Source: an uncultured Gemmatimonadales bacterium
Lineage (GTDB): Bacteria; Gemmatimonadota; Gemmatimonadetes; Longimicrobiales; Longimicrobiaceae
Assembly (NCBI GenBank): GCA_963701155.1
Contig: OY969570.1
Location: 4,728,333-4,792,332, forward strand
Length of the DNA: 64,000 nt
Reading direction: 5' to 3'
The translations under genes and the position numbers were made by a program. Below the pieces are notes generated by a model. It made no database searches. It was not told the origin of the DNA and saw only the letters and a list, made by a program, of their open reading frames with translations. Of the stretch, positions 31,044-58,863 are shown in pieces (within the stretch, counting starts at the first letter, position 1; each line of letters begins with the position of its first letter).

Positions 31044-33470
31044 ATGCGCACACCACGCCTTCCCGCACGATCGCTCCCGGCCATCCACGACGCCCAGGCG
31101 GCGGGCCTCGTTCTCCGCTCCTCGCTCACGCCCGCCGAGGAGAAACAGGAGGGCATCCCCTTCTCCCAATACCTGGCCGCGGTGCGCCGGTACCTGTGGC
31201 TGGTCGCCGTGTGCGTGGCGTTGTCGCTAAGCTATGCGGTGTACAAGCTCGCCAGGGTGCTCCCCGTCTACGTGGCGAGCACCTCCGTGCGGCTGGTGGA
31301 CACGCGGGTGGGGATGTCCGGCGATCTGGAGCAGACGGGGGGCACCTCGGACCAGCTCCCCGGCTTCTACATGGATCCCATCCTGTCGCAGATCCAGGTG
31401 CTGCGCAGCCGCGCCGTGCTGGGGCAGGTGGTGGACTCGCTGGGGCTGCGCCTGTCGCCCACCAATCCCACGTTCTCCTGGCGCGTGCTGGAGCGCGCGC
31501 GCGTCAACTCGGCCGCGCGCGACGGCGACACGGTGGAGGTCCGCTTCGCGGAGGGCGGCGTCACGGCACGTATGCGGCGGGTGACCGCGCGCGCCGCGTA
31601 CGGAGCGCCGCTTCAGCTTCCGGGAGTGGAGATGGTGTTCTCCGGGCGCCCGGCGTCCGCCTCCGAGTCTTTCGTGGTCATGCCGCAGATGGACGTCATC
31701 GGCACCGTGGGCGGCGGGCTCCAGGTGCGCCCGCGCGAGATGACGAACATCGTGGACATCGCCTACCTGACGCACGACCCCATGCTGGCGCAGCGGGTGG
31801 CGAACGCCGCGGCCGCTTCGTTCCAGGAGTTCAGCACCGAGGCCGCGCGGCAGAGCTCGCGCCGGCGCCGCGTCTTCATCCAGGAGCAGCTTCGCAGCAC
31901 GGACGAGCTGCTCGCCACGGCGCAGTTCCAGCTCAGCGCGTTCCGCAAGCGCGCGGGCTCCATGAACCCGCGCGACAAATTCCGCAGCACCGAGGAGGGG
32001 ATGGGCGCCCTCCTCCTCCGCCGCAGCGAGCTGGAGCAGGAGAAGCAACTGTACGACCAGGTGAGCGGGGCGCTGCGCGGCTCCAACTCCCCGGAGGCGC
32101 TGAACCAGGTGGCCGCGCTGGTGGCCTCGCCCCAGGCGGGAAACAACCGCGGGATGGTGGACCTGTACGACCAGTACCTGCGACTGCAGACGATGCGCGA
32201 CTCGGTGACGACGGGGCCGTGGTCGAGATCCACGAGCAACCCGGACGTACAGCGGCTGGACTCGATGATCCTCACCTCCCGCACGCGCCTGATCCAGGCG
32301 GCCGTGGGGCGTTCCACGGCGCTCGCGGCGCAGATCGGCGTCATCCAGAGCCTGGCCTCGTCGAACGTCGCCACGATGGCCGAGCTTCCCGACGCGGAGG
32401 CCGAGGAGCAGCGCCTGGCCCGGCGTGTGGCCACGCTTCAGACGCTGGCGGACGACCTGCTGCGCGAGCAGCAGAAGGCGCGCATCGACGAGGCGGTGCA
32501 GGTGGGGCAGGTGGAGATCGTGGACCCCGCCGTGGTCCCCGGGGGGCCGATCGGCAAGGGGACGGGGAAGCGCCTGGCGTTCGCGCTGGTGCTGGGGCTC
32601 GCGGTGGGAGCGGGCGGCGCGCTGTCGCTCAACCGCCTCAACGGCTCGATCCTGCGGCGCGACGAGATGGAGTCGCTGCTGAACCTTCCCGTGCTGGGGA
32701 TCACCCCGCGGGTGCAGCGCCTGGCCGGCACGGCCGGCTGGACGCGCCACCTGAACGTTTCACGGCGGGTGCGCGGAAAAGGTGCGCCCGCCGGGCCGCA
32801 GTCGCTCGCCTCAGACGTGCAGTCGCCCGCCGCGCAGGCGTACTGGAAGCTGCGCACGCACCTCCTCTTCGCCGCCTCGGACCAGCCGCAACGGGTGCTC
32901 ATGGTGACGAGCGCCGAAGCGGCGGAGGGAAAGAGCACGGTGGCGGCCAACCTGGCGCTCAATTTCGCGCAGCAGGGGGTGCGGGTCCTTCTGGTGGATG
33001 GCGACGCCCGGCGTGCCCGCCAGCACCGCATCTTCGGCGTGGAGCGCTCGCCCGGCGTGTCCGAGGTGCTGGCGGGCCTCGCTTCCTTCGATGACGCGGT
33101 GCGGTCCACCACCGTCCCGGAGCTCTCCGTGCTCCCGGCCGGCCTGCTCGTACCCAACATCACGGACCTGCTGGAGCGGGAGATGGCCGCGCGGGTCCTG
33201 GGTGAGGCGGTGCGCCGGTTCGAGCTCGTGATCGTGGACACCCCCCCGGTGGCCGCGGCCGCCGATGCCGAGATCCTGAGCGCACATGCGGACGCGGTGC
33301 TCCTGGTGGTGCGCGCGGGGCAGACGGACCGGCGCGCCGCCCAGCACGCGGTGCAGCAACTGCGCGCCGTGGGCGCACCCCTCATCGGCGGCGTGCTCAA
33401 CGACCCGGACGAGAAGACCGAAGGCTACTCGTCCTACAAGTACTACGCCGGCTACCGGGACGAGGACTGA
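31044..33470 (+). CDS. wzc: Polysaccharide co-polymerase / BY-kinase
   Basis: Two TM segments flanking a coiled-coil periplasmic region, AEGKST Walker A, VLLVDGD, VIVDTPP, C-terminal Tyr cluster GYSSYKYYAGY. Confidence 0.92.
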   Translation: MRTPRLPARSLPAIHDAQAAGLVLRSSLTPAEEKQEGIPFSQYLAAVRRYLWLVAVCVALSLSYAVYKLARVLPVYVASTSVRLVDTRVGMSGDLEQTGGTSDQLPGFYMDPILSQIQVLRSRAVLGQVVDSLGLRLSPTNPTFSWRVLERARVNSAARDGDTVEVRFAEGGVTARMRRVTARAAYGAPLQLPGVEMVFSGRPASASESFVVMPQMDVIGTVGGGLQVRPREMTNIVDIAYLTHDPMLAQRVANAAAASFQEFSTEAARQSSRRRRVFIQEQLRSTDELLATAQFQLSAFRKRAGSMNPRDKFRSTEEGMGALLLRRSELEQEKQLYDQVSGALRGSNSPEALNQVAALVASPQAGNNRGMVDLYDQYLRLQTMRDSVTTGPWSRSTSNPDVQRLDSMILTSRTRLIQAAVGRSTALAAQIGVIQSLASSNVATMAELPDAEAEEQRLARRVATLQTLADDLLREQQKARIDEAVQVGQVEIVDPAVVPGGPIGKGTGKRLAFALVLGLAVGAGGALSLNRLNGSILRRDEMESLLNLPVLGITPRVQRLAGTAGWTRHLNVSRRVRGKGAPAGPQSLASDVQSPAAQAYWKLRTHLLFAASDQPQRVLMVTSAEAAEGKSTVAANLALNFAQQGVRVLLVDGDARRARQHRIFGVERSPGVSEVLAGLASFDDAVRSTTVPELSVLPAGLLVPNITDLLEREMAARVLGEAVRRFELVIVDTPPVAAAADAEILSAHADAVLLVVRAGQTDRRAAQHAVQQLRAVGAPLIGGVLNDPDEKTEGYSSYKYYAGYRDED

Positions 33471-33557
33471 TCTCACACAGAGGCACAGAGCCACAGAGAG
33501 GAGGAAGGAAGATGAGCTCCTTCTTTTCTCTCTGTGGCTCTGTGCCTCTGTGTGAGA
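33471..33557. repeat. REP-like CACAGAG palindrome (copy 2), likely bidirectional terminator
   Basis: Perfect 30-bp arms TCTCACACAGAGGCACAGAGCCACAGAGAG between convergent wzc and ABC genes. Confidence 0.88.
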
Positions 33558-33571
33558 TTGCCTGTGTAGAC

Positions 33572-35377
33572 TCAGCCCGCTTCGCTCTCCTGGGCGCGCC
33601 ACATATCCTGGAAGCGGCCGGGGGTGGACACCAGCTCGCTCCACGTGCCGCTCTGTACCACGCGTCCTTCTTCCATCACGTGCACCGTGTCCGCATCGCG
33701 CACGCTGGCGAGGCGGTGGGTGATGAGGAGCACCGTGATGGTGCCATGCAGCGAGCGAAGCGCGTCGCGGATCCGGCGCTCGTTCTCCGCGTCCAGGGCG
33801 CTCGTGGCCTCGTCCAGCACCAGGAGGGCGGGGCGGCGGAGGAGGGCGCGGGCCAGCGCGATTCGCTGCCGCTCGCCACCGGAGAGGCTCACCCCGCGCT
33901 CTCCCACCCTCGTGTCCATCCCGTCGGGGAGCGCGTCCACGAAGCCGGCCGCCGCCGCCGACCGCAGGGCGGCGCGCAGCTCCTCCTCCGCCGCTTCTGG
34001 GCGTGCCCACAGGAGGTTGGCGCGCACCGTGTCGTCAAAGATCACCGCGTCCTGCCCCACGTAGCCGATCGCGCCCCGCCACACCCGCATCCACGTGCCG
34101 TCCAGCGTGCGTCCATCCACCACCACCCGCCCTCTGGACGAGGACACCAGCCCCGTCGCGATGTCCGCCAGCGTGGTCTTCCCCGACCCGGAGGGCCCAA
34201 CGACCGCCACGGTGGCGTGCGCGGGTACCCGCAGCGTCACCCCCCGCACGGCGTCGCCGCGCGCCCCGGGATAGGCGAACGACACCCCTTCCAGCACCAG
34301 CGCGTCCCGCAGAGAGGCGGGCTCCCCGGCGGGCCCGAGTATCTCCACGTCGCGCTCCAGCTCCGCGATGGTCCGGAGGAGGGGGGCGTACGCGGAGAGG
34401 TCGTGCAGGACCTGCTGATGCACCGCCTGCACCGACTGGAGCCGGGGGACCAGCCGCGCGAACAGGAAGACGAGGAGCAGGGCCACCGAGCCGGGGAGAC
34501 CCACCCACCTCACGGCGGCGAACGTGACGCCCCCCAGGAGCGCCGCGCCCCCGGCCGAGAACACGGCGCCGGAGGTTGCGAACGCGCGCGCTCCGTGCAG
34601 AGTGGCGTCGCGGGCGTCGCGGGCGGCGGCGGCGAGCCGCGCCACGTCGCGCGCTTCGCCACCATGGCTCTTCACCACCTTGACCCCATGCAGGTGCTCG
34701 CCGGCCGCGGCCAGCATGCGGGCTTGAGCCGTGGAAAGGAGTGCGCCGGCCCGGCGAGTGGCGCGTGCCTGCGGGCGGGTGGCGGCAAGGAGGAGGGCGC
34801 CGCACGCCACGGTCACGGCCGCGCCCCCGGGAGACAGGCGCAGCGCCAGCCCCAGGTACACCACCGCCACCAGCGCCTGGGACACCAGCGTGAGGAGCGC
34901 CGCCGCGGCCCTTCCCACTCTCTCCGACTCGTGCGTGAGCGCCTGCAGTACATCGGAGGAGCGGAGCCGCGCCACCGAGGTCCAGCGCGCGCCCGCGAGG
35001 GCGCGGTACAGGCGCAGGCGCAGCGCCAGCGCCACCTCCTGCTCCACGCGCCACCCCAGCAGTGCAAGCCCGCGCAGGGCCAGCGCCTGGGCCGCGGCCA
35101 GCGCCACGTACAGGGCGAGAGCGCTCCCCAGCTCCGGTGAAGCGCCCACCAGTACCCGCGCCGCCGCGGCCATGCGGGCCGACTCGGCGGGTGGCAGAGG
35201 AACCCCCAGCGCCACCGTGACCGCCACCAGCGCCCCCACCGCCATCACCTCCAGCCCCGCCACGGCCATCGCCAGCACGACTCCCGCCACTGCCGCCGTC
35301 CGCGCGCGCCACGCCTCCCGCGCCAGCGCGCGCACGCCGGCCGGAGCGGAGGGTTCGGGGGTGCCAGGTGGGATCAT
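33572..35377 (-). CDS. ABC exporter, fused permease-ATPase (lasso D-type)
   Basis: N-terminal TM domain; GPSGSGKT, LSGGERQR, LVLDEATS, ITHRL. No C39 peptidase domain visible. Confidence 0.9.
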   Translation of the reverse strand: MIPPGTPEPSAPAGVRALAREAWRARTAAVAGVVLAMAVAGLEVMAVGALVAVTVALGVPLPPAESARMAAAARVLVGASPELGSALALYVALAAAQALALRGLALLGWRVEQEVALALRLRLYRALAGARWTSVARLRSSDVLQALTHESERVGRAAAALLTLVSQALVAVVYLGLALRLSPGGAAVTVACGALLLAATRPQARATRRAGALLSTAQARMLAAAGEHLHGVKVVKSHGGEARDVARLAAAARDARDATLHGARAFATSGAVFSAGGAALLGGVTFAAVRWVGLPGSVALLLVFLFARLVPRLQSVQAVHQQVLHDLSAYAPLLRTIAELERDVEILGPAGEPASLRDALVLEGVSFAYPGARGDAVRGVTLRVPAHATVAVVGPSGSGKTTLADIATGLVSSSRGRVVVDGRTLDGTWMRVWRGAIGYVGQDAVIFDDTVRANLLWARPEAAEEELRAALRSAAAAGFVDALPDGMDTRVGERGVSLSGGERQRIALARALLRRPALLVLDEATSALDAENERRIRDALRSLHGTITVLLITHRLASVRDADTVHVMEEGRVVQSGTWSELVSTPGRFQDMWRAQESEAG

Positions 35378-35453
35378 ACCGCTGTCTCGCACGAAGGCAG
35401 GAAGACACAAGGGAAAGCGGCCTCTCCCCGGGGTCGCTTCGTGGGAGCCCCCA

Positions 35454-36605
35454 TCAGCGGGGCCGGCGCGGAAGGTAGCGCATCAGAAGGCGCAGCGGAC
35501 GCACGACGCGGTACGCCGCGAGGAGCCGGTCCGGGAGGGAGAGCCAGGCCCAGTCCTCGGGACCGGGGATCGTGGCCCACCGCCATGCGTAGCGAAGCTG
35601 GTCGGCGCGGGAGTCGCGCGCCGCAAGGTTGAAGCGCAGGTTGGCCGCCGTTTCCTCCTCCGGCTCCGGACCACGGATACGCGCTTCGGCCTCGTCGCAC
35701 AGCGCATCCAGCCCGGGCTCGCGCCCCACCGCGGCGGCGAGCGCGGGCGGGAGCGGGAGGGCCAGAAGGCGTCGCGCGAGGGCAAGGCCCAGCAGAACGG
35801 TGCGTCGCGCTCCCAACGCGGCGGCATGCTCCAGGCACCGGGCGGGATGGGCACCGCCAGACCGGGCGAGCTCGGCTACCGCCACCAGCCACTCCAGCCG
35901 CTTCCAGCGGTGCTTGGCGCCGTGGATGCACAACACCAGGAGGAGGTCGTCGGGCCCGGGCGCGCGCACCTCCGCGCCGCCCACGCGTACCCCCACGGCG
36001 CTTCCGAGCAGCGCCTCCGTTTCCACGGGCATGGCGAAGCGCAGCGACGAGACGCGCGCGTGCAGCTCCACCAGCACGCCGGTGGTGCGGTGCAGGTATG
36101 CCCGGTCCCCATCTACCCGGTTGAAGAGCGCCTCGCGCCCGGGGGTCAGCTTCAGGTGCGGATCGTATCCGCACTCCCGCAGCACCCGGCCCGCGGCGGG
36201 CATGTCCGCGGGGAGTACCAGGAGGTCCAGGTCTGCGAAGTAGCGCAGCGCGAGGTCGCCGTAGACCTGCACTGCCTGCGCGGGCCCTTTGTAGGCGAGC
36301 GACCGGATTCCCCGGGCCTCCAGCGCCTCCGCCAGCCGCCGAAGCTCGCGCGACAGCCGCAGCGCCCGGTGGACGTTGTGGCGGTGGGCCTCCGCCAGCT
36401 CCGCCTCCAGCCCTCCAGGCAGCGCCACGCCCGCCAGGTGGCGGTGCAGGAAGCCGATCAGCCCATGGCGCCGCGCCAGCGCCAGCAGCGCTTCTCCGTC
36501 CAGCGGCCCGGCCGCCACCACACGCAGCCGGCTGGCCTCGCCGGGCGTAAGGGTGAGGCGGGCGCAGAGGAAAAGGACCTCCTCCTCCGGCGTACGCGAG
36601 ATCAT
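35454..36605 (-). CDS. Nucleotidyltransferase family protein (NTP_transf_5-like)
   Basis: AYKGPA...RYFADLDLLV, VELH, LCIHGAKH signature of the uncharacterised NTase found in lasso clusters. Confidence 0.85.
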   Translation of the reverse strand: MISRTPEEEVLFLCARLTLTPGEASRLRVVAAGPLDGEALLALARRHGLIGFLHRHLAGVALPGGLEAELAEAHRHNVHRALRLSRELRRLAEALEARGIRSLAYKGPAQAVQVYGDLALRYFADLDLLVLPADMPAAGRVLRECGYDPHLKLTPGREALFNRVDGDRAYLHRTTGVLVELHARVSSLRFAMPVETEALLGSAVGVRVGGAEVRAPGPDDLLLVLCIHGAKHRWKRLEWLVAVAELARSGGAHPARCLEHAAALGARRTVLLGLALARRLLALPLPPALAAAVGREPGLDALCDEAEARIRGPEPEEETAANLRFNLAARDSRADQLRYAWRWATIPGPEDWAWLSLPDRLLAAYRVVRPLRLLMRYLPRRPR

Positions 36606-36749
36606 CCGGGCTCCCCGGGACCCCATGGGCACGTGGGGGCGCGGCTCGACGCGCCCGCCGCCTGGGCACGGACGGGTCCCGGCGTTCCGGCACGATGGCC
36701 GGCTCGCGCGCGAGCCGGCCGGGATGAATCCTGTCTCACGAATCCGAGG

Positions 36750-37895
36750 TCACCGGGCCAGCCGCTCCGCGAGCTGGCCGGCACGCGTGAGCGCCGCCTC
36801 CCGGGTGGGAAACAGGTGCGGACAGGCAGCCCACAGCGCCGCGGCGATGTCGGCCAGCGTCGCCGTGCCGTCCATCATCGAGAGCGCGGCCGCCTCCGCG
36901 CGCCCTTCGTCGCTCAGGGAGGGGCGGAAGCCGTCGTCGCGCAGGCGGAGGCGCGCGGGCGAGGGCGGGGCCGCGAAGAACGTGGAATGGCGCATCTCCG
37001 CCGGCTCGCGGCCGGGGCGCTCCACCCGCGCACTCCACCCCCACACGTAGTCGCCTCCCGCCCTCCGGGCGGAAAGCTCCGCGCGCACCGTGTCTCCCGG
37101 CTCCACCTCCACGGCCTCGGCCCAGGGAAGGAAGGAAGTGCGATAGGTGGTGCGCGTTCCCGGGCCCGTGTGGAACGAGACGCCGTCCGCCAGCTCCGCG
37201 TGGAACCACACCGCCAGGCCGTGCATCCGGCCGGCGCGCTCCACCGTCCACTCGGGGGTGCCCGCCGCATGTGCGTCGGTGCGGGCCAGATAGTCCAGCG
37301 TGGCCCAGCGCGCCGCGGGAGCCAACTGCTGACCCGGGTCCAGCTCCACGCGCCGCACCGTGTGCACCGCCCGCCGGCGCGCGGCGTCCATGTCGAACCC
37401 CAGTGCGCACTCGTCCCACGGGGCGACGACTTCCGCCCAGGCCGCGGCGGCGTCCACCGGCGCCGCCACCAGGTGGTCGGCGCGCGGGATCATCACGCCG
37501 CCGGGCGCCAGGTGGCGCTCCCGCGCGTCGGCCAGGGAATCGATGATCCCCTGGAAGAGCGGGAGGGAGCCGCGGAGGTCGGACACGATCACGTCCGCGC
37601 GCTCGGGCAGGGTAGCGCGGGTGGACAACGCCTGGATGAACTCGATGCGGTCCGCCACGCCGTTGGCCCGCGCGATCTCCCGCGCCACCTGCACCGCTTC
37701 CGCCGGCTCCAGGGCGAACACGCGCCGCGCGCCGAAGCGGCAGGCGAGCATCGCCATCACCCCCGTTCCCGTGCCGATGTCCAGCACGACGGAGCCGGGA
37801 CGCACGGTCGCCTCCATCGCGCGGGCGTAGGCGTCCATGCGCGCGCGGTCGGCCAGCATCCGGCCGTACCCCACCACGTCGTAGCCGCTCGTCAT
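36750..37895 (-). CDS. PRMT-fold SAM methyltransferase
   Basis: MLADRARMDAY, VLDIGTGTG, LPERADVIVSD, GGVMIP, HGLAVWF: matches the protein-arginine-methyltransferase core plus beta-barrel. ATGA overlap with the kinase. Confidence 0.82.
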   Translation of the reverse strand: MTSGYDVVGYGRMLADRARMDAYARAMEATVRPGSVVLDIGTGTGVMAMLACRFGARRVFALEPAEAVQVAREIARANGVADRIEFIQALSTRATLPERADVIVSDLRGSLPLFQGIIDSLADARERHLAPGGVMIPRADHLVAAPVDAAAAWAEVVAPWDECALGFDMDAARRRAVHTVRRVELDPGQQLAPAARWATLDYLARTDAHAAGTPEWTVERAGRMHGLAVWFHAELADGVSFHTGPGTRTTYRTSFLPWAEAVEVEPGDTVRAELSARRAGGDYVWGWSARVERPGREPAEMRHSTFFAAPPSPARLRLRDDGFRPSLSDEGRAEAAALSMMDGTATLADIAAALWAACPHLFPTREAALTRAGQLAERLAR

Positions 37896-38830
37896 CCGTC
37901 CCGCATCGCGCCGGCCTCGATGCACGCGCACAGCTCGCCGATGCGCGCCGGGTCTTTGTGCGGCACCAGGCGCACCACGCGGGCGCGCGCGGCCACCGCG
38001 CCCAGGCGCACCAGGTCCCGCCCGCGCGCCGCGGCGTCTGGAAGCCACGCCATGTACACGTTGGCCAGCAGGTTCAGCACCGCCTCCGCCGCGGGAAGCG
38101 GCTCCACCCGGGGCGCCCCGTCCTCCTCGCGCCCGGCCAGCACGTAGACGGTGCGCAGCGGAAGCGGTGTGCCATGGAAGGCTTCCATGCGCCGGTAGCG
38201 CTTGTCCCACCCGGCGCTGAGGCGTGGAAGGCCGGCGTCGCCGTACAGGGCGCGCCCCGCCTCCGGCCAGAGCCGCACGACCGGGTATCCCGGCTGCACC
38301 TGCACGGCGTCCGCGGTTTCGATGAGGGGGGAGATGTCGTCGGAGAGAAGGGTGTGGCCGCGCGCCGCGAGTGCCGCGGCGGTGGTGGACTTTCCCGCCC
38401 CGCCCGGGCCACAGACGAGCACCGCGGCGCCCCCCACCTTCACGGCGCTGGCGTGCAGGCAGGTGGCGCCGCGCAGGCGCAGAATGAGCCCCATGACGGG
38501 GCCCGTCAGGTAGGTGGCGGCGTCGTCAAGCGACAGCCCCGCGGGCCAGGTGCACCCCACCCGCGCCCCGTCGGCGCGCACCGTGAACGCCACCCCGTCC
38601 GCGTACTCCAGGTGCAGCCATCCCCGCGCGCGGCGGATCACCAGCGCCGGGCGGTCGCCATCGGGCTCGCGCTCGGCGCGGTACCACACCGGCCCGGGAT
38701 CCGCGGGCGCACCCTCCGGCGCTCGCCCCAAGCGCACATCCACGTCGGCGCCGCCGGAGCCCGCAAAGGGCTCCAGCGTGGGGACGGCGGCGGTGGTCTC
38801 GACGACGAGGCCGTACAGGAGGTAGCGCAA
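37892..38830 (-). CDS. HPr kinase-related peptide kinase (lasso K-type)
   Basis: CLHASAV, GPGGAGKST Walker A, LSDD; directly downstream of the precursor. Confidence 0.85.
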   Translation of the reverse strand: MRYLLYGLVVETTAAVPTLEPFAGSGGADVDVRLGRAPEGAPADPGPVWYRAEREPDGDRPALVIRRARGWLHLEYADGVAFTVRADGARVGCTWPAGLSLDDAATYLTGPVMGLILRLRGATCLHASAVKVGGAAVLVCGPGGAGKSTTAAALAARGHTLLSDDISPLIETADAVQVQPGYPVVRLWPEAGRALYGDAGLPRLSAGWDKRYRRMEAFHGTPLPLRTVYVLAGREEDGAPRVEPLPAAEAVLNLLANVYMAWLPDAAARGRDLVRLGAVAARARVVRLVPHKDPARIGELCACIEAGAMRDG

Positions 38831-38876
38831 AGGAGAGGGGTGGGGCCGCGCGCGGGCGCGTCACGCCGGGAGAGCG

Positions 38877-38935
38877 GAGCCGCGGGTGCGCTCGTTCACG
38901 CCGGCCCGGGGCGCGGCGTGCCCTGAGCGCGGCTC
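38877..38935 (-). other. Stem-loop downstream of the precursor gene
   Basis: GAGCCGCG/CGCGGCTC outer arms and CACGCCG/CGGCGTG inner arms; could stabilise or attenuate the precursor mRNA. Confidence 0.4.
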
Positions 38936-38984
38936 TTTCACGGCGGCACGACCCGCACCGCCGGCGGGGGAAACATGAACCCCG

Positions 38985-39122
38985 TCAGGTCATCGACTGG
39001 GAGCCGTTGCCCGGGTCGTTCATGTTGTTGCTCACCGTCGTAAGAGTGAGCTCGCGCATGTCGCCGTACACCTTGAGGCGCGGCTTGCTGTACGGGCGTC
39101 GCGTGGGGCTCTGCTGCTGCAT
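38985..39122 (-). CDS. Lasso peptide precursor (45 aa), not in the ORF track
   Basis: Hand translation MQQQSPTRRPYSKPRLKVYGDMRELTL-TTVSNNMNDPGNGSQSMT; GGGAG RBS; exact YxxPxLxxxGxxxxxT leader motif; Asp at core position 9. Confidence 0.9.
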   Translation of the reverse strand: MQQQSPTRRPYSKPRLKVYGDMRELTLTTVSNNMNDPGNGSQSMT

Positions 39123-39170
39123 CGTCTTCTCCCTCAAGTGTGCGTCGACGGACGCGTTCCGCCGCGCGTG

Positions 39171-40994
39171 TCACCCCGGCTCGCTTCGCAGCCAGAGCGA
39201 GAGCGCTAGGGGGCGGAGGTCCATCCAGAGCGCTCCCGGGTCCTCCTCCGAAGCGCCGCCGACGCCGCGTGAAAGGCGTGTGCGATCCACGAAGGGCTCG
39301 ATCTCGACTCCCACCGCGCGTCCCCCGATCCACCCCGTGCCGTGGGCGCTCCGGCGGGTCGCGAGCGTGTCTCCCCCGGCGGGTGTCTTGGGCCTTCGCA
39401 ACACCGGCTCCGGAAGGCGTCCCCGCATACCTATCCGTATGGGGCCTTTATCATTATACCACTGCGCGGGGGGAATCGACAACAGCAGCGACACCACCCG
39501 GGTGTCGGCGAACGGCTGGCGCACCTCCAGCGGGACGCCCGTGGCCCACGGTCCGTAGAAGCCGAACAGGTAGCTCCAGAAGGGCGCGGAGAGCTGGGCG
39601 TGCGCTTCGGGGCGGAGCGGATGCGGCGGGGCCGGCAGCGCGCCCTGGGCCCGGACGCGCTCCGCCAGCCCCACGCGCTCCGCCAGCCCCGGCGAGATCC
39701 AGGGCGGGATCGGCGGGGGGGTCCACTCCGGCTGGCCGCGCAGCCAGGTGCGCACGCCGGGGCGCGGAAGGCGGCGGTGGTGCCACGTGTATACCGCCGC
39801 CTCGCCCAGCGCGCGCGCCGGGTGCCCGCCCGCCGCCAGCCGCACCAGCCGCGAGCGGCTTTCGCGCAGCACCGCGTCGCCCCCCATTCCCATCAGGAGC
39901 ACGCGCGAGCGGCCGGCCATCTCGCGCAGCTCGTCGTCGATCAGCGCCAGCAGCGGCTCGGCCACGGGCTGCGCGCGGCGCAGGCGCGGGTCGTCCCAGC
40001 GCTCGAACGCGCGGTACCCGTCCATCGCGTGGAAAAGGATGGGGATGCCGAGCGCCTCCCCCACCATCCGGGCGAAGGGGGGCTCGGGATCGGGGTACAG
40101 CGACTCGCAGTACGCCGTCAGGGCGTGCAGGCGGGTGTTGCGCTCCCCCCGCCCCACCACCTCACGCGCCAGCGCCGCGATCGTGGGAGAATCCCGTCCG
40201 CCGCTCAGGAAGAAGGAGGCGTCGCCCTCCGGCAGCCGGTCGCGCACCGCATCGCGAAGCACCTCCACGAAACGCTCCGAGTACTCCCGAGGGCCCCGCA
40301 GGCGCAGCTCATCGTCGCGCGGGAGATCCCAGAAACGGCGCGTCACGGCACGCCCGTCCTCCAGCACCAGCAGATGAGCGGGGCGCAGGGCCCGCACCCC
40401 GCGCCAGACGGTGGCGTCCTCGTCGAACGGGTAGCCGTGCACCAGGAAGTCCGCGATCCACGCCTCATCCAGCGCCCCGGGAACGCGGGGGTGCAGGCGC
40501 ACGCACTCCGGCGCGCTCGCGAAGATGAAGTCGTCTCCCGCCCACGCGTGGAAGAAGGGCTTGAGGCCGAAGGGGGAGCGCGCGCACAGAAGGCGGCGCG
40601 CCGTTGCATCCCACAGCGCGAAGGCGTAATCCCCCACCAGCCGCTCCACGCACGCATCGCCCCAGGCGCGGTAGGCGCGAAGGATCAGCTCGGCGGAGGG
40701 GGCGCCGGGCGGAGCCGCCTCCCCGGCGCCGCGCAGGCGGCCGAGAAGCTCGGCGCGCGCGTCCACCCGCGCATCGGCCACGATCCAGTAGCGCCCGTCC
40801 AGCGAGAGCGGCTGCGGCGGCTCGGGGAAGGGGTCGCCCGTGGCCAGAAGCGCGTGCGCCAGGCCGGCCGCTCCCACCACGCGCGCCGCGCCCCCGTCCG
40901 GAGCGCGCTGGGCCAGGAACGCGGCCATACGCTCGAGCAACGCCCCGTCCGCGGGCGCTCCGGTGGACGACACCAGCCCGGCGATTCCGCTCAT
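39171..40994 (-). CDS. Lasso cyclase (asparagine synthetase-like, C protein)
   Basis: AsnB fold but begins MSGIAG (no catalytic Cys); VGDYAFALWD, LSGGRDS, GMGGD, EVRQPFAD, LPEPVLRRPK. Confidence 0.9.
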   Translation of the reverse strand: MSGIAGLVSSTGAPADGALLERMAAFLAQRAPDGGAARVVGAAGLAHALLATGDPFPEPPQPLSLDGRYWIVADARVDARAELLGRLRGAGEAAPPGAPSAELILRAYRAWGDACVERLVGDYAFALWDATARRLLCARSPFGLKPFFHAWAGDDFIFASAPECVRLHPRVPGALDEAWIADFLVHGYPFDEDATVWRGVRALRPAHLLVLEDGRAVTRRFWDLPRDDELRLRGPREYSERFVEVLRDAVRDRLPEGDASFFLSGGRDSPTIAALAREVVGRGERNTRLHALTAYCESLYPDPEPPFARMVGEALGIPILFHAMDGYRAFERWDDPRLRRAQPVAEPLLALIDDELREMAGRSRVLLMGMGGDAVLRESRSRLVRLAAGGHPARALGEAAVYTWHHRRLPRPGVRTWLRGQPEWTPPPIPPWISPGLAERVGLAERVRAQGALPAPPHPLRPEAHAQLSAPFWSYLFGFYGPWATGVPLEVRQPFADTRVVSLLLSIPPAQWYNDKGPIRIGMRGRLPEPVLRRPKTPAGGDTLATRRSAHGTGWIGGRAVGVEIEPFVDRTRLSRGVGGASEEDPGALWMDLRPLALSLWLRSEPG

Positions 40995-41000
40995 CGCCCG

Positions 41001-41297
41001 CTACGGCACATCACCGGGAAGCACCTCCAGCAGCCGTCGCGTCGCGAGATCTTCCAGCAGCTCCCGGAGATCCGCATCCACCGTGGCGGCATCCACGTCG
41101 TACTCCGCGGTCACGGCGTCGCGCAGCTCGGCCAGGGTGCGCGGCTCGCGCAAAAGCTCCCACACCCGCGCGCCCACCCCGTCCAGCCCGTAGTACACCT
41201 CGTCGGCGAAGTTGAGGATCACCAGCTCCCCCTCCACCGTACACGAGACTTCGTTGCGCGTCGCGCGCAGGCGCGCTCCGGGCGGAAGCTTCGTCAC
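41001..41297 (-). CDS. PqqD-family RiPP recognition element (lasso B1)
   Basis: GELVILN...YYGLDGVGARVWELL...L.AEYDV...DLRELLEDL; GTG start overlaps the upstream stop. Confidence 0.9.
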   Translation of the reverse strand: MTKLPPGARLRATRNEVSCTVEGELVILNFADEVYYGLDGVGARVWELLREPRTLAELRDAVTAEYDVDAATVDADLRELLEDLATRRLLEVLPGDVP

Positions 41298-41920
41298 CGG
41301 CGGCCCGGGCGGCGCGTCGACTTCAGCAGCACGCCCTGCAGCGCGTCGTGGACGGTGAGCAGCTCGGCCGGGGGGGGGGCGAGGACCGCGTCCGGAAGGG
41401 CGCGCAGCAGGGCATGGTATGCCCGGATGGCTTCCCTCCACCGTCCCGCTTCCGGGAACTCGCCGGCATCATCCGGGCACCCGGCGGGAGGGGCATAGAG
41501 CCCATGCAGCGCGTCCGAAAGCCGGCGAGCCTCCTCCTGCGCACGCGGTGCTCCCCGCGACAGCGCACTCGCCACGGCCGCCGCGTCGGCGGAGGGGGTT
41601 CCCAGCAGCAGCGCCAACACGGCGGGGCTCCCCGCGCCCCGCGGGGCGGCGGCCACGCTGTCGGCATACATGCGGGCCGCGGTGCGCACCGTGCATCCCA
41701 CGCCCGCGCTGCGAAAGCGCGTCCCCAACGCGTCGCTGGCGAACAGCGCGTTCACCGAGCGCAGCCCGGGGCCGGCAAAGCTCCCTCCCGCTGCTCCGCT
41801 CCCCGTGGTGTTCGGAAAGGCGATGTCGGACTGGTTCCCGGACTGCGCCGCGGCACGCACCGGGAGGAGGAACACGGCCGCGGCTGGGGCGGCAAGGCAG
41901 AATCGGAGGATCGGGTGCAT
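41294..41920 (-). CDS. Exported hypothetical protein coupled to the RRE gene
   Basis: Signal peptide ending AAA-Q; stop overlaps RRE start (GTGA). Confidence 0.72.
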   Translation of the reverse strand: MHPILRFCLAAPAAAVFLLPVRAAAQSGNQSDIAFPNTTGSGAAGGSFAGPGLRSVNALFASDALGTRFRSAGVGCTVRTAARMYADSVAAAPRGAGSPAVLALLLGTPSADAAAVASALSRGAPRAQEEARRLSDALHGLYAPPAGCPDDAGEFPEAGRWREAIRAYHALLRALPDAVLAPPPAELLTVHDALQGVLLKSTRRPGRR

Positions 41921-41937
41921 CGGTGATGCCTCGCTGC

Positions 41938-43044
41938 TCAGAAGATGTGCGGAATGCGGAAGCCGTACCCCACGGACGCGATCAGCCGTGCGCCGTCGCC
42001 CGCGCTTCCCGTGATGTCCGCCACTCCCACGGTGGCCACCACCGGGACGCGCCGCACGGGGCGGACCGAGACGGCGGCGTACAGGTCCTGCCCGGTCCAA
42101 TCGGCGCTCAGGGAGACGGGCTCCGCGACCCGCACGCCCACCGCGCCGAACACGTTCACCGTTTCCCGGCCCGCGACGACGTCCTCCTCGCTGCGGAAGC
42201 GGCCGTTCCCGATTCCCAGCGTCAGTGCGGCGGACGAGAAGAGCGCGGACGATGCCTTTCTCAGTTGCAGGAGGCGCGTGGCGGCTCCGTACACGCTGAC
42301 TCCCGCGTCCGTCCGTCCCCAGCGGACCCCGTTCTCCACCCCGACGGCAACCGCCAGATCGCGACCGAACGCGCGATGCACTTTGGCGCTGAGCGAGCCG
42401 TCGGAGAACGGGCCGCCGTCGTGCACGGTGGCGTACGAAGTCGCCGCGAGCTCCACCGCCACGAAGCGGTCACGGTCGCCCAGCCCCACGCCCAACACGA
42501 GCGCGCCGTCCTGAAGGTCGGTGTAGCGGGTACGCGCCTGGTACGCGCCCCCCGCGAATGCTTCGCCGCCGTGCAGGGCAAACGCGGTCGGTGAGCTCAC
42601 ACTGGCTCCGGGAACGGCGATCACTCGCTCGCGCAGGGGCAGCAGCGCCAGCCGGCTCCTCCACTCCTGAGGGCTCAGCGAGGGGATCTCCTCGCGCGTC
42701 ACCGCGCTCTCCACGGGGCGAGTGGCCGCGGCGGGCGCGGCGGGCGCGGCGGGCGCGGCGGGTGCGGCGGGCGCAGCGGGTGCGGCGGGTGCGGCGGGTG
42801 CGGCGGGTGCGGCGGGTGCGGCGGGTGCGGCGGGTGCAGCGGGCGCGGCGGGTGCAGCCGGGGGAAGCGGCGCGACCTCGCCGCTCCCACGCTGCTTCCG
42901 GACCGGCATCCCCGGTCTCCTCGCGGCTGGGCGGGCCACGGCGGTATCGCTCCCGCTCGGCAGCGGCCGCTGCTGGGATTCCAGGCACGTGTGCCCGGCC
43001 AGGACGAGCGTGGTCAGGAGAAGACCCGTACGGTGCGAGAGCAT
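41938..43044 (-). CDS. Probable outer-membrane beta-barrel protein with Pro-Ala linker
   Basis: Signal-like N-terminus, (PAA)n linker, alternating beta strands, terminal aromatic end [10 protein letters not shown]. Confidence 0.68.
42728..42862. repeat. 9-bp tandem repeat, about 15 units (GCRGCGGGY), encoding PAA
   Basis: Counted directly in the sequence. Confidence 0.9.
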
Positions 43045-43213
43045 GTGGATGGCGGATGACGGAGGGAGCTGCGCAGGGCACGGAAGTCATTGGCGCACCG
43101 GCGAATATGGTTCCATTGGAGGCGTGGGGCAAGGGAACTCGCTGGACGGCGCGGGGGGAGCGCCGATACCTTGCGCATCCCTTCGTCCTCCCCACCGCAA
43201 TCCGGGAAATAGA

Positions 43214-43828
43214 ATGCACCGCGCGCTCACCGCGTTCTTTGTGCTGGCCCTCGCGGCCCTTCCCGCGCGCGCCGCAGCACAGTCGGTCTCCCCCGACACC
43301 ATCTTCGTGCGGCCCGGCGACGCCATCCAGCTCGCCGTGTGGCGCCAGCCCGAGCTGTCCGGCGAGTTCCCCGTGGGTTCGGACGGGACGATCCAGCACC
43401 CGCTGCTCAGCTCCATCGCCGTGGCGGGCGTCCCGCGCTCCGTCATCCGCGAGCGGCTCACGCAAGCTCTCTCGCGATTGGACCGGGAGCCCCACTTCGT
43501 TTTCGACTTCCGCTACCGAGTCGCGGTGGGAGGTGACGTGCGGCTCCCCGGCCTCTATCGCATCGCCCCGCAGACCACCGTGGGCGAAGCAATCGCCACG
43601 GCTGGGGGAGCCAACGCCAGCGCACGGCTGGATCGCGTGATCCTCGCGCGCGCCGGCAGCCAGATCGTGGTGAACTTGCGAGATTCGGACGCGGCCGCCT
43701 ACTCCGTCCCGCTTCGCTCCGGCGACGAGATCCGGGTTCCCCGCGCGCGCGTCATCCTTCGCGACATCATCGGCCCGTTGGCCGCCGTGGTCGGAGCCAT
43801 GGGCGCGGTCGTCTCCCTCTTCCGATAG
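43214..43828 (+). CDS. wza: Polysaccharide export protein (Poly_export + SLBB, short Wza-like)
   Basis: RPGDAIQLAVWRQPELSGEFPV..DGTIQHPLL, VGGDVRLPGLY, LRSGDEIRVP, C-terminal amphipathic helix. Confidence 0.85.
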   Translation: MHRALTAFFVLALAALPARAAAQSVSPDTIFVRPGDAIQLAVWRQPELSGEFPVGSDGTIQHPLLSSIAVAGVPRSVIRERLTQALSRLDREPHFVFDFRYRVAVGGDVRLPGLYRIAPQTTVGEAIATAGGANASARLDRVILARAGSQIVVNLRDSDAAAYSVPLRSGDEIRVPRARVILRDIIGPLAAVVGAMGAVVSLFR

Positions 43829-45173: not shown

Positions 45174-46307
45174 TCATGCGCCCAGCCGCGCGACCTTGAA
45201 GAGCGGCAGGTAGATGCCGAACACCAGCGTCGCCACAAGGCCGAAGACGAGGAGGATCAGGACCGGCTCGATCAGCTTGGCGGCGGTGTCCACCTCTTCG
45301 AGGACGAACTCCTCGTAGTACTCGGCGAGGAGCTCCATCTGCTCGGGGAGGGTGCCGCCCGTCTCGCCGACGCCGGTGCTGGAGAGGACCTCGGCGGGGA
45401 TAGCGCGCGTGCGCTCCAGCGCTTCCTCCACCCGCATCCCGGCCCCCACGTCCGCGGCGGCGGAGCGGATCGCATCGGCCAGGTGGTGGTTGCCCAGCGT
45501 GTCCGCCGACATGCGCATGGCGGACGAGACGCCTACGCCGCCGAAGAGCATGGTGCTGAGCATCCGGCAGTACTGAGCCATCGCCCCGCCCTCGGCCAGC
45601 GGCCCGACCACGGGAACCTTTACCAGGTAACGGTCCGTGGCGCGCCGGATTCGCGGACGCGCGTAGAGCCGCGCGAGCCCCATCCCGGCTCCGGCGGCCA
45701 CGAGCAGGACGCCGGGCCCCAGCCGCGTCGCGGTGGCGGACGCCCACAGGAGGGAGCGCGTGACGGCGGGAAGCTCCACCCCCGCGTCGGCGAAGATGCT
45801 CGCGAACTGCGGCATGATCCGGGTGAGCATGTACCAACCCACCAGCCCCAGCGCCACGAGCACGAACACGGGGTAGATGGCGGCCGACCTGATCTTCGCC
45901 CGCACCTGCTGCGTGCGGTGAAGCGCCGTGCCCATGCGCTTCAGCACCACGTCCAGCGAGCCGGTGCGCTCGCCCACGGCGACGCTCGCCACGTAGCTGG
46001 GCGGGAAGACTTTCGGGTGCTCCTCCATGGCGTCGGCGAGCGTGCTCCCCGACTGGACACGTACGGTGATCTGGTCCACCACCCGGCGCAGCGCCTTCTG
46101 CGCCAGCCGGCGGCGGAGCACCGCGAGCGCGCCCGCCGGCGTCAGCCCGCTGTGGAGGAGCGAGGCCAGCCGGCGCGTGAAGAGCATCATCTGCTTCTTC
46201 GGCACCCGCCCGCCGCCGAGCTCCAGCGCCAGGAACCTGCGCAGCGCCGGCGGCGCCGAGATGGCGGCCATACCGCTCCGTTTCCGAGTGTGAGCCGCGA
46301 CGTTCAT
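45174..46307 (-). CDS. pilC: Type II secretion/type IV pilus platform protein (GspF/PilC)
   Basis: FTRRLASLLHSG, GERTGSLD, AAIYP, GETGGTL, IEPVLI, IYLPLF; ATGA overlap with PilB stop. Confidence 0.92.
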   Translation of the reverse strand: MNVAAHTRKRSGMAAISAPPALRRFLALELGGGRVPKKQMMLFTRRLASLLHSGLTPAGALAVLRRRLAQKALRRVVDQITVRVQSGSTLADAMEEHPKVFPPSYVASVAVGERTGSLDVVLKRMGTALHRTQQVRAKIRSAAIYPVFVLVALGLVGWYMLTRIMPQFASIFADAGVELPAVTRSLLWASATATRLGPGVLLVAAGAGMGLARLYARPRIRRATDRYLVKVPVVGPLAEGGAMAQYCRMLSTMLFGGVGVSSAMRMSADTLGNHHLADAIRSAAADVGAGMRVEEALERTRAIPAEVLSSTGVGETGGTLPEQMELLAEYYEEFVLEEVDTAAKLIEPVLILLVFGLVATLVFGIYLPLFKVARLGA

Positions 46308-48073
46308 CCCTGCATCGTCTCCCGCGTCACCTCCGCCAGCGTCGTCTCCCCCGCCCGCATCCGCTCGATCCCCGCCTGGCGCAGCGTCGTCATCCCCTCC
46401 GCCACGGCGAGCGCGCGCAGCTCGGCGCCGGGGCGGCGCGCCACGATCGCATCCCGCAGCGCCGGTGACAGCGGCATCATCTCGAATACACCGATCCGCC
46501 CGAAGTAGCCGCTGCGGTTGCAGTACGAGCACCCCGCCCCCGCGCGGAAGGGGATCTCCGCAGCTTCCGCGCGCGCAAGGCCGGCGCGGCTGAGCTCGTG
46601 CGCGGACGGAGCGTACTCCCCGCGGCAGCGGGGACAGATCCGGCGCACGAGGCGCTGCGCCACGACGAGCGAGAGGGCGTCCACGAGGTTGTACGGCTCG
46701 ATGCCGATGTCCAGCAGGCGCGCCACGGTAGAGGGCGCGTCGTTGGTGTGGAGGGTGGAGAGGAGCAGGTGCCCCGTCATCGCGGCCTTGACCGCGGTGC
46801 CGGCGGTCTCCGCGTCGCGGATCTCGCCCACCATGATGACGTCGGGGTCCTGGCGGAGGATGGAGCGGAGCGCGGTGGCGAACGTCATCCCCGTGCTCGC
46901 GCCCACGGAGGTCTGCCGGATGCCGCGGATCTTCCGCTCCACCGGGTCCTCGATGGTGATGATGCTGCGCGCCGGATCGTTCAGGTGATCGAGCGCGGCG
47001 TAGAGCGTGGTGGACTTGCCGGAACCCGTGGGGCCCGTCACCAGAATCATCCCCTGCGGGCGCTCGACGGCCTCGGCGAAAACGGTGTGATCGCGCCCCG
47101 CCATCCCGACGCTCGACAGCTCCACCGGCGTCTGGGCGCGGGCCAGAACGCGGAGGACGGCGTGCTCGCACCCCCAGTCGGTGGGGAGGGTGGAGACGCG
47201 CAGCTCCACCTCGGCTCCGTCTTCCAGCACGTGCTTCATCCGCCCGTCTTCCGGGATGCGGTCCTGCGCCGAGTTCAGGCCTGACAGCACCTTGATGCGG
47301 TTGACGATCTCGCGTCCCCAGGTGGGGTCCAGCTCCCGCGCCACCACGAGCTGCCCGTCGATGCGGTAGCGGATGCGGCCCTGGTGGTCAAAGAACTCGA
47401 AGTGCACGTCGGATGCGCGCTTCTTGACGGCGTCTTCGATGAACGCCTCCACCATGCGCGGCACCTGCGCGCCGCGCACCGCGTTCTCGATCTCGTCGGA
47501 GATGCTGGCCCGGGCGCGCACCCGCGCTCCGCTCCGCTGCGCCTCGCCCATGACGCGGTGGAGCTTGTCTGCCCCCGCGTACGCGGTGCGCAGCAGGGTG
47601 TCGAGCGAGTGGTCGTCCGCCAGGAGCGGCACGGGCGAGAGCCCGGTGATGTCGCGGATGCGGCTCAGCGAGGCGAGGTCGTACGGGTCCCCGTTGGCCA
47701 CCCACAGGTCGCGCCCCTCCACGCGCAGCGGGACCACGCGGAGCTGCCGCGCCGTCTCCCCGTCGATCAGCTCGAGGACGCCGCGGTGGGGGCGCTCGGC
47801 GGCCAGGCTCACCGTCTCCACTCCGAACACCCGCCCCAGCACCTCCAGCGCGCGGCCCACGGTAAGGCGTTCCATCTCCACCAGGTGGAAGATGGCGCTG
47901 CGCCGCTCGCGGTCCGCCGCCGCCGCCTGGTACGCCTCGTCCACGTCGCGCGGCGCCAGCTCCCCGGCCTCCAGCAGCGGGCGGACGATGCGGTCCTGGA
48001 TCGCACCCTCGCGCTCGCGCTGGCCGGCACGGGACAGCTCGGTGGCTTCGAGCGTGGGCGGTTCGCCGTGCAT
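46304..48073 (-). CDS. pilB: Type IV pilus/T2SS assembly ATPase (PilB/GspE); in frame with the upstream SLT
   Basis: ASDVHFE, RYRIDG, PEDGR, GPTGSGKST, TIEDPVE, RQDPDVIMVGEIRD, CPRC...CSYC. Internal ATG 48073 would give 589 aa. Confidence 0.92.
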   Translation of the reverse strand: MHGEPPTLEATELSRAGQREREGAIQDRIVRPLLEAGELAPRDVDEAYQAAAADRERRSAIFHLVEMERLTVGRALEVLGRVFGVETVSLAAERPHRGVLELIDGETARQLRVVPLRVEGRDLWVANGDPYDLASLSRIRDITGLSPVPLLADDHSLDTLLRTAYAGADKLHRVMGEAQRSGARVRARASISDEIENAVRGAQVPRMVEAFIEDAVKKRASDVHFEFFDHQGRIRYRIDGQLVVARELDPTWGREIVNRIKVLSGLNSAQDRIPEDGRMKHVLEDGAEVELRVSTLPTDWGCEHAVLRVLARAQTPVELSSVGMAGRDHTVFAEAVERPQGMILVTGPTGSGKSTTLYAALDHLNDPARSIITIEDPVERKIRGIRQTSVGASTGMTFATALRSILRQDPDVIMVGEIRDAETAGTAVKAAMTGHLLLSTLHTNDAPSTVARLLDIGIEPYNLVDALSLVVAQRLVRRICPRCRGEYAPSAHELSRAGLARAEAAEIPFRAGAGCSYCNRSGYFGRIGVFEMMPLSPALRDAIVARRPGAELRALAVAEGMTTLRQAGIERMRAGETTLAEVTRETMQG

Positions 48074-49075: not shown

Positions 49076-49328
49076 CGGAACCGGTGGAGGAGGTGCGCGC
49101 GCCGACACTGGACTCGCTACATACGAGATACCCCGGGTGCGGGAATGCGGCTCCCGGCAACCGCGATTTGCGGTGAACACGGCCAGGGTGAGAACGGCTT
49201 GGCTACGGCGATGACTGCTTTGGAGCGCGGAGGGGGTTTGGCGACGACGGAGGTGCCGATCCGGGGTATCTACAAGGAGGGACATCGAAGATCCCGGACA
49301 CAGCTCTCCCGTCATCCCGCACCGCGCC

Positions 49329-58747: not shown

Positions 58748-58863
58748 CGTTCTCCACGCGGCAGGCCAGGCGTAGCGCGACCCAGCAGAGACGACTCCCA
58801 GGAGGCCCTCACCCTACACGGGGTGCGGGCCCCCATTCGTTGCACCGACTCCGAGGACCATCG

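Follow-up and report, generated by a model that had tools for sequence, protein, structure and literature searches.

Lasso peptides of diderm bacteria are thought to leave the cell through the ABC pump of their own cluster and a housekeeping channel such as TolC. For microcin J25 (MccJ25), the cluster exporter McjD does the inner-membrane step and TolC serves the outer membrane (PMC13352647), and a 2026 review names McjD/TolC alone for this second step. Tailoring of the precursor C-terminus by a kinase has been published for PadeK, ThcoK and SyanK, with a C-terminal Ser as the acceptor (PMC9266682). In pseudomycoidin, the PF14907-type enzyme PsmN puts a hexose onto the peptide phosphate after PsmK has acted, and this system shows that lasso maturation is possible without the B1 and B2 proteins (PMC6993621). 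For polysaccharides, a short protein of the outer-membrane polysaccharide export (OPX) family encoded next to a beta-barrel is a documented translocon design (PMC9603273, PMC9601211, PMC12819527). Here we analyse a 64,000-nucleotide stretch of DNA (the window) from an uncultured Gemmatimonadales bacterium (contig OY969570.1, positions 4,728,333 to 4,792,332), in which genes of both kinds stand together beside a polysaccharide operon. With some reserve, we favour the reading that positions 33572–43828 form one self-contained ten-gene unit, a Longimicrobiaceae-specific variant of the kinase/nucleotidyltransferase-tailored lasso clusters that encodes its own outer-membrane export route for an anionic phospho-glyco-peptide.

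The window has a G+C content of about 74%, uniform throughout the region, and genes were called from codon-position GC (GC3 frame analysis) and not from the length of open reading frames (ORFs). A polysaccharide operon (+, ~6040–33470) is followed by an operon for a peptide made by ribosomes and modified after translation (RiPP; –, 43044–33572) and then by a Wza-like OPX gene (+, 43214–43828). The operon's last gene, wzc, and the RiPP operon are convergent and leave a 101-bp gap, while the Wza-like gene and the first RiPP gene, O368, are divergent with 169 bp between them. The RiPP operon is transcribed in the order O368, O208, a PqqD-type RiPP recognition element (RRE), cyclase, precursor, kinase, methyltransferase, PF14907 nucleotidyltransferase and ABC exporter. 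An earlier note on this DNA had placed wzc at 31044–33470, the Wza-like gene at 43214–43828 and the RiPP operon between them, with a shared divergent region, and GC3 frames and Pfam matches confirm all of this. The first two genes of the operon turn out to encode a barrel and a secreted protein, not biosynthetic enzymes. Calling the longest ORFs misleads at 74% GC: the ORFs at 34731–38147 (+) and 42722–43213 are shadows, and a Pfam ‘Collagen’ match on the ORF at 42722–43828 is the antisense of a Pro/Ala repeat in O368.

Synteny of the Wza-like gene

Genomic contexts were fetched by exact protein, by a scan of a genome collection with the cyclase alignment and by a metagenome scan with Wzc, and the window proteins were mapped onto all fetched loci (numbered with the prefix L) by tblastn. 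The OPX gene is divergent from O368–O208–PqqD–cyclase in 15 of the 17 Longimicrobium-type loci that extend far enough, with cyclases 45–85% identical to that of the window. What lies beyond OPX is not constant: L001 has GGDEF/AIRC/Dus, both L002 and L103 have TPR/polyprenyl synthase, L083 has formyltransferase/threonyl-tRNA synthetase, and the window has response regulator/type II secretion system (T2SS) genes. OPX and the RiPP operon were found together in unrelated genomic contexts (L001, L002, L083, L100, L103 and L105), and three loci (L083, L103 and L105) hold the complete ten-gene unit with no polysaccharide genes within 10 kb. A wzc gene lies after the ABC exporter, in convergent orientation, in 4 of 13 Longimicrobium-type units (the window, L015, L027 and L104); the remaining 9 of 13 have neither Wzc nor a glycosyltransferase nearby. 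In L015 the RiPP operon is flanked by Wzc and Wza as in the window. Judged from their histidine kinase and BrkB flanks, the loci L015, L027 and L104 are orthologues of one another.

The reverse comparison gave a matching picture. Wza homologues with at least ~50% identity sit on cyclase-bearing contigs, and those with 45–48% identity (L101, L102) lie in ordinary epimerase–wza–wzc–flippase–glycosyltransferase operons. In a neighbour-joining tree, the RiPP-linked OPX proteins form a clade apart from the OPX proteins of exopolysaccharide (EPS) operons, the two clades being sisters. We also compared the end of the window's polysaccharide operon with orthologous EPS tails (L087, L090 and L092–L094), whose glycosyltransferases are 65–73% and whose Wzc proteins are 53–59% identical. 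In these tails wzc is the last gene, and what comes next is acyl-CoA dehydrogenase/RNase E, DUF2911/AsnC/GS-III or ZIP/MgsA; no wza or RiPP genes come after wzc in any of them. The canonical gene order in Gemmatimonadota is wza followed by wzc (L101, L102, L039), as against wzc followed by wza in the window. In L039, from Gemmatimonadaceae, a RiPP operon (PqqD) is divergent from wza–wzc–glycosyltransferase genes, and wzc directly follows wza.

Because of this forward and reverse synteny and of the orthologous EPS tails, we assign the Wza-like gene to the RiPP unit and not to the polysaccharide operon that ends at wzc. By the same synteny, O368 and O208 also belong to the RiPP unit and not to the polysaccharide operon. 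Judged from gene order, the wzc...wza arrangement of the window is not a disrupted wza–wzc pair; it is an old but dispensable neighbourhood. The earlier note had described Wzc and Wza as partners separated within one large polysaccharide locus. This picture is not supported: OPX accompanies the RiPP genes from context to context, the orthologous EPS operons stop after wzc, and the order is reversed. Nor does the polysaccharide locus continue past wza, where a response regulator and genes of T2SS/type IV pilus (T4P) type come next. The simple insertion offered as its alternative found no support either.

The intergenic region between wza and O368 (43045–43213) was aligned for five loci. Conserved blocks are kept in it even though the flanking proteins are only 50–85% identical: GCGCAAcCTAaG, then CTTGyvC-N17-CATATT, then GCTTC. 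In the window, TTGCCC-N17-CATATT resembles a –35/–10 pair, reads toward O368 and is likely the promoter of the RiPP operon. A consensus promoter scan of this region returned no match and missed the block, and sigma-70 and terminator consensus scans of both junctions yielded nothing useful.

Lasso-type enzymes and the precursor peptide

The biosynthetic part of the unit resembles the paeninodin (PadeK), ThcoK/SyanK and pseudomycoidin (PsmK/PsmN) clusters in having a PqqD RRE, an Asn-synthetase-like cyclase, a short precursor with a YxxPxL...T-x leader, an HPr-kinase-like kinase, a PF14907 nucleotidyltransferase and an ABC exporter. Unlike these clusters, it has no B2, carries an extra PRMT-like methyltransferase and three envelope genes, and resides in a diderm host of the Gemmatimonadota.

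The precursor gene (38985–39122, –) encodes a 45-aa peptide, MQQQSPTRRPYSKPRLKVYGDMRELTL/TTVSNNMNDPGNGSQSMT by translation, which fits the lasso leader motif YxxPxLxxxGxxxxxTx exactly. The Asp of the window precursor is at core position 9, or at position 8 if cleavage occurs one residue later, and its C-terminus reads ...SQSMT, ending in M-T. Among the fetched loci, about 40 homologous precursors keep the leader motif and the Thr at –2, with the Asp mostly at core position 9 and in a minority at position 10. The first core residue in the family is often T, N, L or S, as opposed to G, A, S or C in PadeK/PsmN-type clusters. The C-terminal region of these ~40 precursors (loci L001–L072) has a conserved [K/M/R]-T followed by 0–3 residues. 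The conserved C-terminal Ser of characterized kinase-tailored lasso peptides is replaced in this family by a putative Thr acceptor that stands after K, M or R, at or near the C-terminus.

The predicted lasso macrolactam cyclase (C protein; 39171–40994, –) is Asn-synthetase-like, with Pfam GATase_7 and Asn_synthase domains. It has 357 homologues, almost all of them from Longimicrobium or Longimicrobiaceae (Gemmatimonadota). Among NCBIfam families it comes closest to the lasso cyclase NF033535, with 257 bits where the cut-off is 525, and the match covers model positions 1–391 only. The PqqD-type RRE (B1; 41001–41297, –) matches Pfam PqqD with an E-value of 4e-17 (62.7 bits, cut-off 23.4); in NCBIfam it comes nearest to lasso PqqD chaperones, without reaching their cut-offs. 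Next in line after the precursor is a putative HPr-kinase-like peptide kinase (37892–38830, –), which scores 33.4 bits for Pfam Hpr_kinase_C against a cut-off of 33.3 and whose position is kept across ~70 loci. We did not adopt an assignment to the HprK_rel_A or HPr-rel-A families: the scores are far below the cut-offs, and a literature search on both families gave nothing. The ATG of the PRMT/PrmA-like S-adenosylmethionine (SAM) methyltransferase (36750–37895, –; Pfam PrmA and PRMT_C) overlaps the kinase stop codon (ATGA). It is followed by a PsmN-like protein of the PF14907 nucleotidyltransferase fold (35454–36632, –; Pfam NTP_transf_5, E 7e-51) and by the last RiPP gene, an ABC exporter (33572–35410, –) with a transmembrane and a nucleotide-binding domain (Pfam ABC_membrane and ABC_tran) that is kept in relatives. 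The best NCBIfam matches of the exporter are HepA-family and MsbA, all below cut-off. A role as a leader-cleaving transporter was rejected for it, as Pfam reveals no C39 peptidase domain.

A tblastn search with three B2 proteins found no B2 leader peptidase in the 64-kb window or in any Longimicrobium-type locus. The same search located B2 in 52 loci of other lineages, between RRE and cyclase, and there is no gap between these two genes in the window. The idea that O208 might be a diverged B2 was dismissed, since the protein carries a signal peptide and the CLxxSL...AHAWVE motifs typical of B2 are missing from it.

Some relatives depart from the common layout. L027 (7860–11836) and L104 (10001–14538) have a tandem pair of cyclase paralogues together with three or four genes for precursors, and in L104 a HicB/PIN toxin–antitoxin pair lies between the ABC exporter and wzc. 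Longimicrobium terrae (L085) has a reduced cluster of cyclase, kinase, methyltransferase and an antisense precursor, without OPX, barrel, O208, nucleotidyltransferase and ABC genes.

Envelope genes and a possible export route

The Wza-like gene encodes a short OPX of 204 aa with a Pfam Poly_export (PES) domain followed by one SLBB domain, an arrangement on which Pfam, the AlphaFold2 (AF2) model and Foldseek agree. The AF2 model has a predicted local distance difference test (pLDDT) score of 85.9, and Foldseek matches it to WzaB (9n9a, the best match) and Wza (2j58) with E ~1e-12. The protein carries a Sec signal without a lipobox Cys and is not a lipoprotein. It ends in a conserved 23-aa hydrophobic Gly/Ala/Val-rich helix, recognized in the alignment and the AF2 model; this predicted C-terminal helix gives no Pfam match to Wza_C.

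The E. coli Wza–Wzc system (group 1 capsule) has the same PES and SLBB folds, and the window Wzc, like its counterpart there, is a full PCP-2a BY-kinase (polysaccharide co-polymerase and bacterial tyrosine kinase). The window OPX differs from E. coli Wza in having one SLBB domain instead of two and 204 instead of 379 aa. In contrast to Wza–Wzc systems, it is neither adjacent to nor co-transcribed with wzc, and it belongs to a separate clade co-inherited with lasso genes. Gemmatimonadota EPS operons (L101, L102, L039) encode the same short design with a C-terminal hydrophobic helix. The class-3 OPX/Wzp systems of Myxococcus xanthus (WzaX/S/B with WzpX/S/B) likewise have a short OPX gene beside an outer-membrane barrel gene. 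There, however, the barrel is an 18-stranded, PgaA-like Wzp with a PCP; here it has 12 strands and is KdgM/NanC/FapF-like, and only 4 of 13 units have a PCP next to them, most having no such partner. The window OPX is moreover a non-lipoprotein with a hydrophobic C-terminal helix, and its neighbours are RiPP enzymes, not glycosyltransferases. Judged by domains and predicted fold, the protein is a true OPX in a system that does not clearly fit the class-1 definition (lipidation, Wza_C) and does not fit that of class-3/Wzp (18-stranded barrel, PCP).

O368 (41938–43044, –), the first gene of the RiPP operon, encodes a predicted outer-membrane protein in which a signal peptide and a (PAA)n linker precede a 12-stranded beta-barrel. 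The AF2 model of its C-terminal 250 residues shows the 12 strands with pLDDT 88.5 and a predicted template-modelling (TM) score (pTM) of 0.83. Foldseek relates the barrel to the acidic-oligosaccharide porins VhGalP, KdgM and NanC, to FapF and to autotransporter barrels (E 4e-5 to 9e-3). Strand number and barrel fold agree with the KdgM/NanC/VhGalP porins and the amyloid-subunit channel FapF, with TM-scores up to 0.66 on the target, but identity to them is only 8–13%, and O368 differs by its N-terminal Pro/Ala-repeat linker and by cyanobacterial homologues with SLH domains. In a sequence search of O368 against the PDB, the only matches were low-complexity ones to the Pro/Ala repeat. That repeat (42720–42850, –; residues ~66–110) is a 9-bp tandem repeat encoding ~15 Pro-Ala-Ala copies, and homologues range from 352 to 456 aa, probably varying through this linker.

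O208 (41294–41920, –) encodes a secreted 208-aa protein whose signal peptide ends in AAQ and which has a conserved GNQSD motif as well as two conserved Cys; it is present in all Longimicrobium-type loci. O368 and O208 are 17 bp apart and both co-directional with the RiPP operon. The O208 stop codon overlaps the GTG start of the RRE gene (GTGA), and the identical 4-bp overlap occurs in L001 and L083; from this overlap O208 appears translationally coupled to the RRE gene. A marginal BamD/YfiO-like match of O208 (E 0.024) and a single BTAD/TPR match were rejected as not significant. In cyanobacterial homologues of O368 the C-terminal barrel is 43–52% identical and SLH domains are fused to it. In Nostoc (L099, 8001–10620) such a homologue is followed by a distant O208 relative, with no lasso or OPX genes nearby. 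Because the two adjoin there as well, we regard O368 and O208 as a conserved pair by sequence, and a pair of this type looks like an older outer-membrane module.

The order of events in the unit would be as follows. The PqqD RRE would bind the YxxPxL leader of the 45-aa precursor, the HPr-like kinase would phosphorylate the conserved Thr at or near the C-terminus, the PF14907 enzyme would put a sugar on the phosphate, like PsmN, and the PRMT-like enzyme would methylate the peptide. Since no B2 is present, the leader would be cut off by another protease, after which the cyclase would join the new N-terminus to Asp8/9. The ABC exporter would then move the anionic phospho-glyco-peptide into the periplasm, and its passage across the outer membrane would be through the OPX ring and the small barrel, with O208 possibly acting as an adaptor. 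Gene content, operon structure, co-inheritance of the ten genes and predicted folds are established by the comparisons above; what we say about function, including the putative outer-membrane export of a modified peptide, is read from sequence, synteny and predicted structure.

The envelope genes occur exactly in the lineage without B2, which suggests that their gain and the loss of B2 are one linked change in maturation and export. As in MccJ25, the inner-membrane step would fall to the ABC exporter of the lasso cluster; in place of the housekeeping TolC used there (PMC13352647), the window cluster encodes its own OPX and barrel. The searchable literature turned up no RiPP cluster, lasso or otherwise, that encodes an OPX or an outer-membrane barrel of its own. 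If this reading is true, an own OPX ring and barrel combined with the absence of a leader peptidase would be a new design of RiPP export and maturation, and it would be the first suggestion of OPX proteins handling something other than a polysaccharide.

Several observations weigh against it. To our knowledge, no OPX carries a peptide. The usual docking partner of an OPX is a PCP such as Wzc, and most of these units have none. L027 and L104, two of the four Wzc-adjacent units, keep barrel and O208 and have no OPX, so that OPX is not indispensable to the unit. The EPS operon of the window possesses Wzc but no OPX of its own within 64 kb, and for this reason the RiPP-linked OPX could serve that operon in trans. 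On the biosynthetic side, the phospho-acceptor would be a Thr where the characterized systems use a C-terminal Ser, cyclase and kinase score below NCBIfam cut-offs, and with B2 absent even lasso formation by the window unit is presumptive. O208 has no Pfam, NCBIfam or PDB relative and no recognizable fold. A search of sequencing runs returned only metagenomic DNA runs, with at most 12% of words matched, and no RNA runs.

Alternative readings and the neighbouring polysaccharide operon

The alternative that survives best, though we think it unlikely, is a functional coupling in which Wzy/Wzc-dependent polysaccharide assembly uses the modified peptide as a substrate, primer or anchor or is regulated by it, for example with a glycan ligated by a Wzy_C-type ligase, and OPX and barrel export the conjugate or both products. 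Of 32 large loci (at least 17 kb each) from other phyla, 13 have a Wzc-family gene within 10 kb, where ~1–2 would be expected even at 2 Wzc genes/Mb (Poisson P < 1e-7); the background rate is assumed and shared ancestry is ignored, so that this enrichment is suggestive only. In Acidobacteriota, co-directional strings run through PqqD, B2, cyclase, kinase, (nucleotidyltransferase), TPR/CBM, Wzy_C, Wza, Wzc and epimerase. The wza–wzc–glycosyltransferase genes divergent from PqqD in L039 point the same way, as do the four units in which Wzc and the ABC exporter are convergent (the window, L015, L027, L104) and the ability of PsmN-type enzymes to put a hexose on a phospho-peptide (PMC6993621). On the other hand, 9 of 13 Longimicrobium-type units have no Wzc or glycosyltransferase nearby, no such conjugate is known, and the EPS operon of the window has its own WecA-like lipid-linked initiation, so that a peptide primer is not needed. 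A link between lasso peptides and polysaccharides, which the earlier note had built on a split wzc–wza pair, thus persists in a looser form, carried by the Wzc neighbours in 4 of 13 Longimicrobium-type and 13 of 32 other loci and by the Acidobacteriota strings; the split pair itself is lost. For the note's idea of a phospho-peptide glycosylated with the help of the nucleotidyltransferase, PsmK/PsmN of pseudomycoidin are a published precedent (PMC6993621), while its suggestions of a primer, anchor or signal are speculative. Two such Acidobacteriota strings (L022:9400–21000 and L033:9500–21300) include an O-antigen-ligase-like Wzy_C, a 350-aa Wza and, as a variable member, a nucleotidyltransferase–methyltransferase fusion.

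A broader proposal would combine both themes: a polysaccharide-type translocon (OPX, small barrel and periplasmic partner) was recruited to secrete a ribosomal peptide with a phospho-sugar tail, and this lasso subfamily is mechanistically tied to Wzy/Wzc assembly across Gemmatimonadota and Acidobacteriota, the peptide being, for instance, conjugated to glycan or controlling export. We regard this proposal as doubtful. The cross-phylum co-location of lasso and wzy/wza/wzc genes is a lead in this direction: in abundant, little-studied soil phyla, surface polysaccharides and phospho-glyco-peptides may be linked in function. If the proposal is true, the product would be a peptide–glycan hybrid, surface-bound or secreted, of an undescribed kind.

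It is improbable, in our estimate, that the Wza-like protein, O368 and O208 are a polysaccharide outer-membrane translocon that shares only a regulatory region with the RiPP operon, the peptide leaving otherwise or staying inside. An OPX with an adjacent barrel is indeed documented for polysaccharide export (PMC9603273, PMC9601211, PMC12819527), and homologues of O368 and O208 are paired in Nostoc without lasso genes. Yet translational coupling ties O208 to the RRE gene, O368 runs in the direction of the operon, 17 bp from O208 and downstream of the conserved promoter-like block, its barrel is made of 12 strands as against the 18 of PgaA-like Wzp porins, the envelope genes occur exactly in the lineage that lost B2, and L083, L103 and L105 have no polysaccharide genes within 10 kb.

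Least credible, and largely refuted by synteny, is the view that a single polysaccharide system has Wzc as its PCP and the Wza-like protein as its OPX, with a mobile RiPP operon inserted between them and a purely polysaccharide role for the Wza-like protein: the lack of another OPX beside Wzc in 64 kb, the same flanks in L015 and the sister position of the RiPP-linked clade to OPXs of ordinary Gemmatimonadota EPS operons speak for it, but the gene accompanies the RiPP operon in 15 of 17 loci, mostly with no Wzc or glycosyltransferase nearby, the orthologous EPS tails end at wzc without wza, the canonical order is wza–wzc, the divergent junction also exists in L039 where wzc directly follows wza, and GC is uniform across the region. 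For annotation, this means that a Wza-like gene beside an EPS locus need not be a gene of that locus.

The Wzx/Wzy-type polysaccharide biosynthesis operon (6040–30716, +; Pfam, transmembrane (TM) segment count and frame plot) is a neighbour of the favoured ten-gene RiPP unit, not a member of it. Its genes are co-directional and mostly overlapping and, over 27 kb, end in wzc. It begins with a WecA-like initiating transferase (6040–7629, +; Pfam), and two polytopic membrane proteins with 10–11 TM segments (10925–12268 and 16243–17766, +) are candidates for Wzy and Wzx. Pfam identifies ~12 GT1/GT2 glycosyltransferases and ~7 methyltransferases; this unusual richness in methyltransferases, FkbM and DUF268 types included, suggests a heavily O-methylated polymer. 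The last operon gene encodes the Wzc-type PCP-2a/BY-kinase (31044–33470, +), with Pfam Wzz and GNVR regions between two TM segments, a P-loop kinase domain (AAA_31) and a C-terminal Tyr cluster (YSSYKYYAGY), as is usual for this class; it scores 171.9 bits for NCBIfam eps_fam against a cut-off of 108.

The 64-kb window contains no further OPX or PCP gene. To the right of the Wza-like gene there are no polysaccharide genes; what follows is a response regulator, then genes of T2SS/T4P type, an HTH/M78 pair and an RHS protein. Two features there are unrelated to the RiPP unit: a long ORF (46304–49561, –), possibly two genes, that combines SLT transglycosylase, MshEN and T2SSE ATPase domains, and the RHS-repeat protein itself, of 1551 aa (58840–63495, +).

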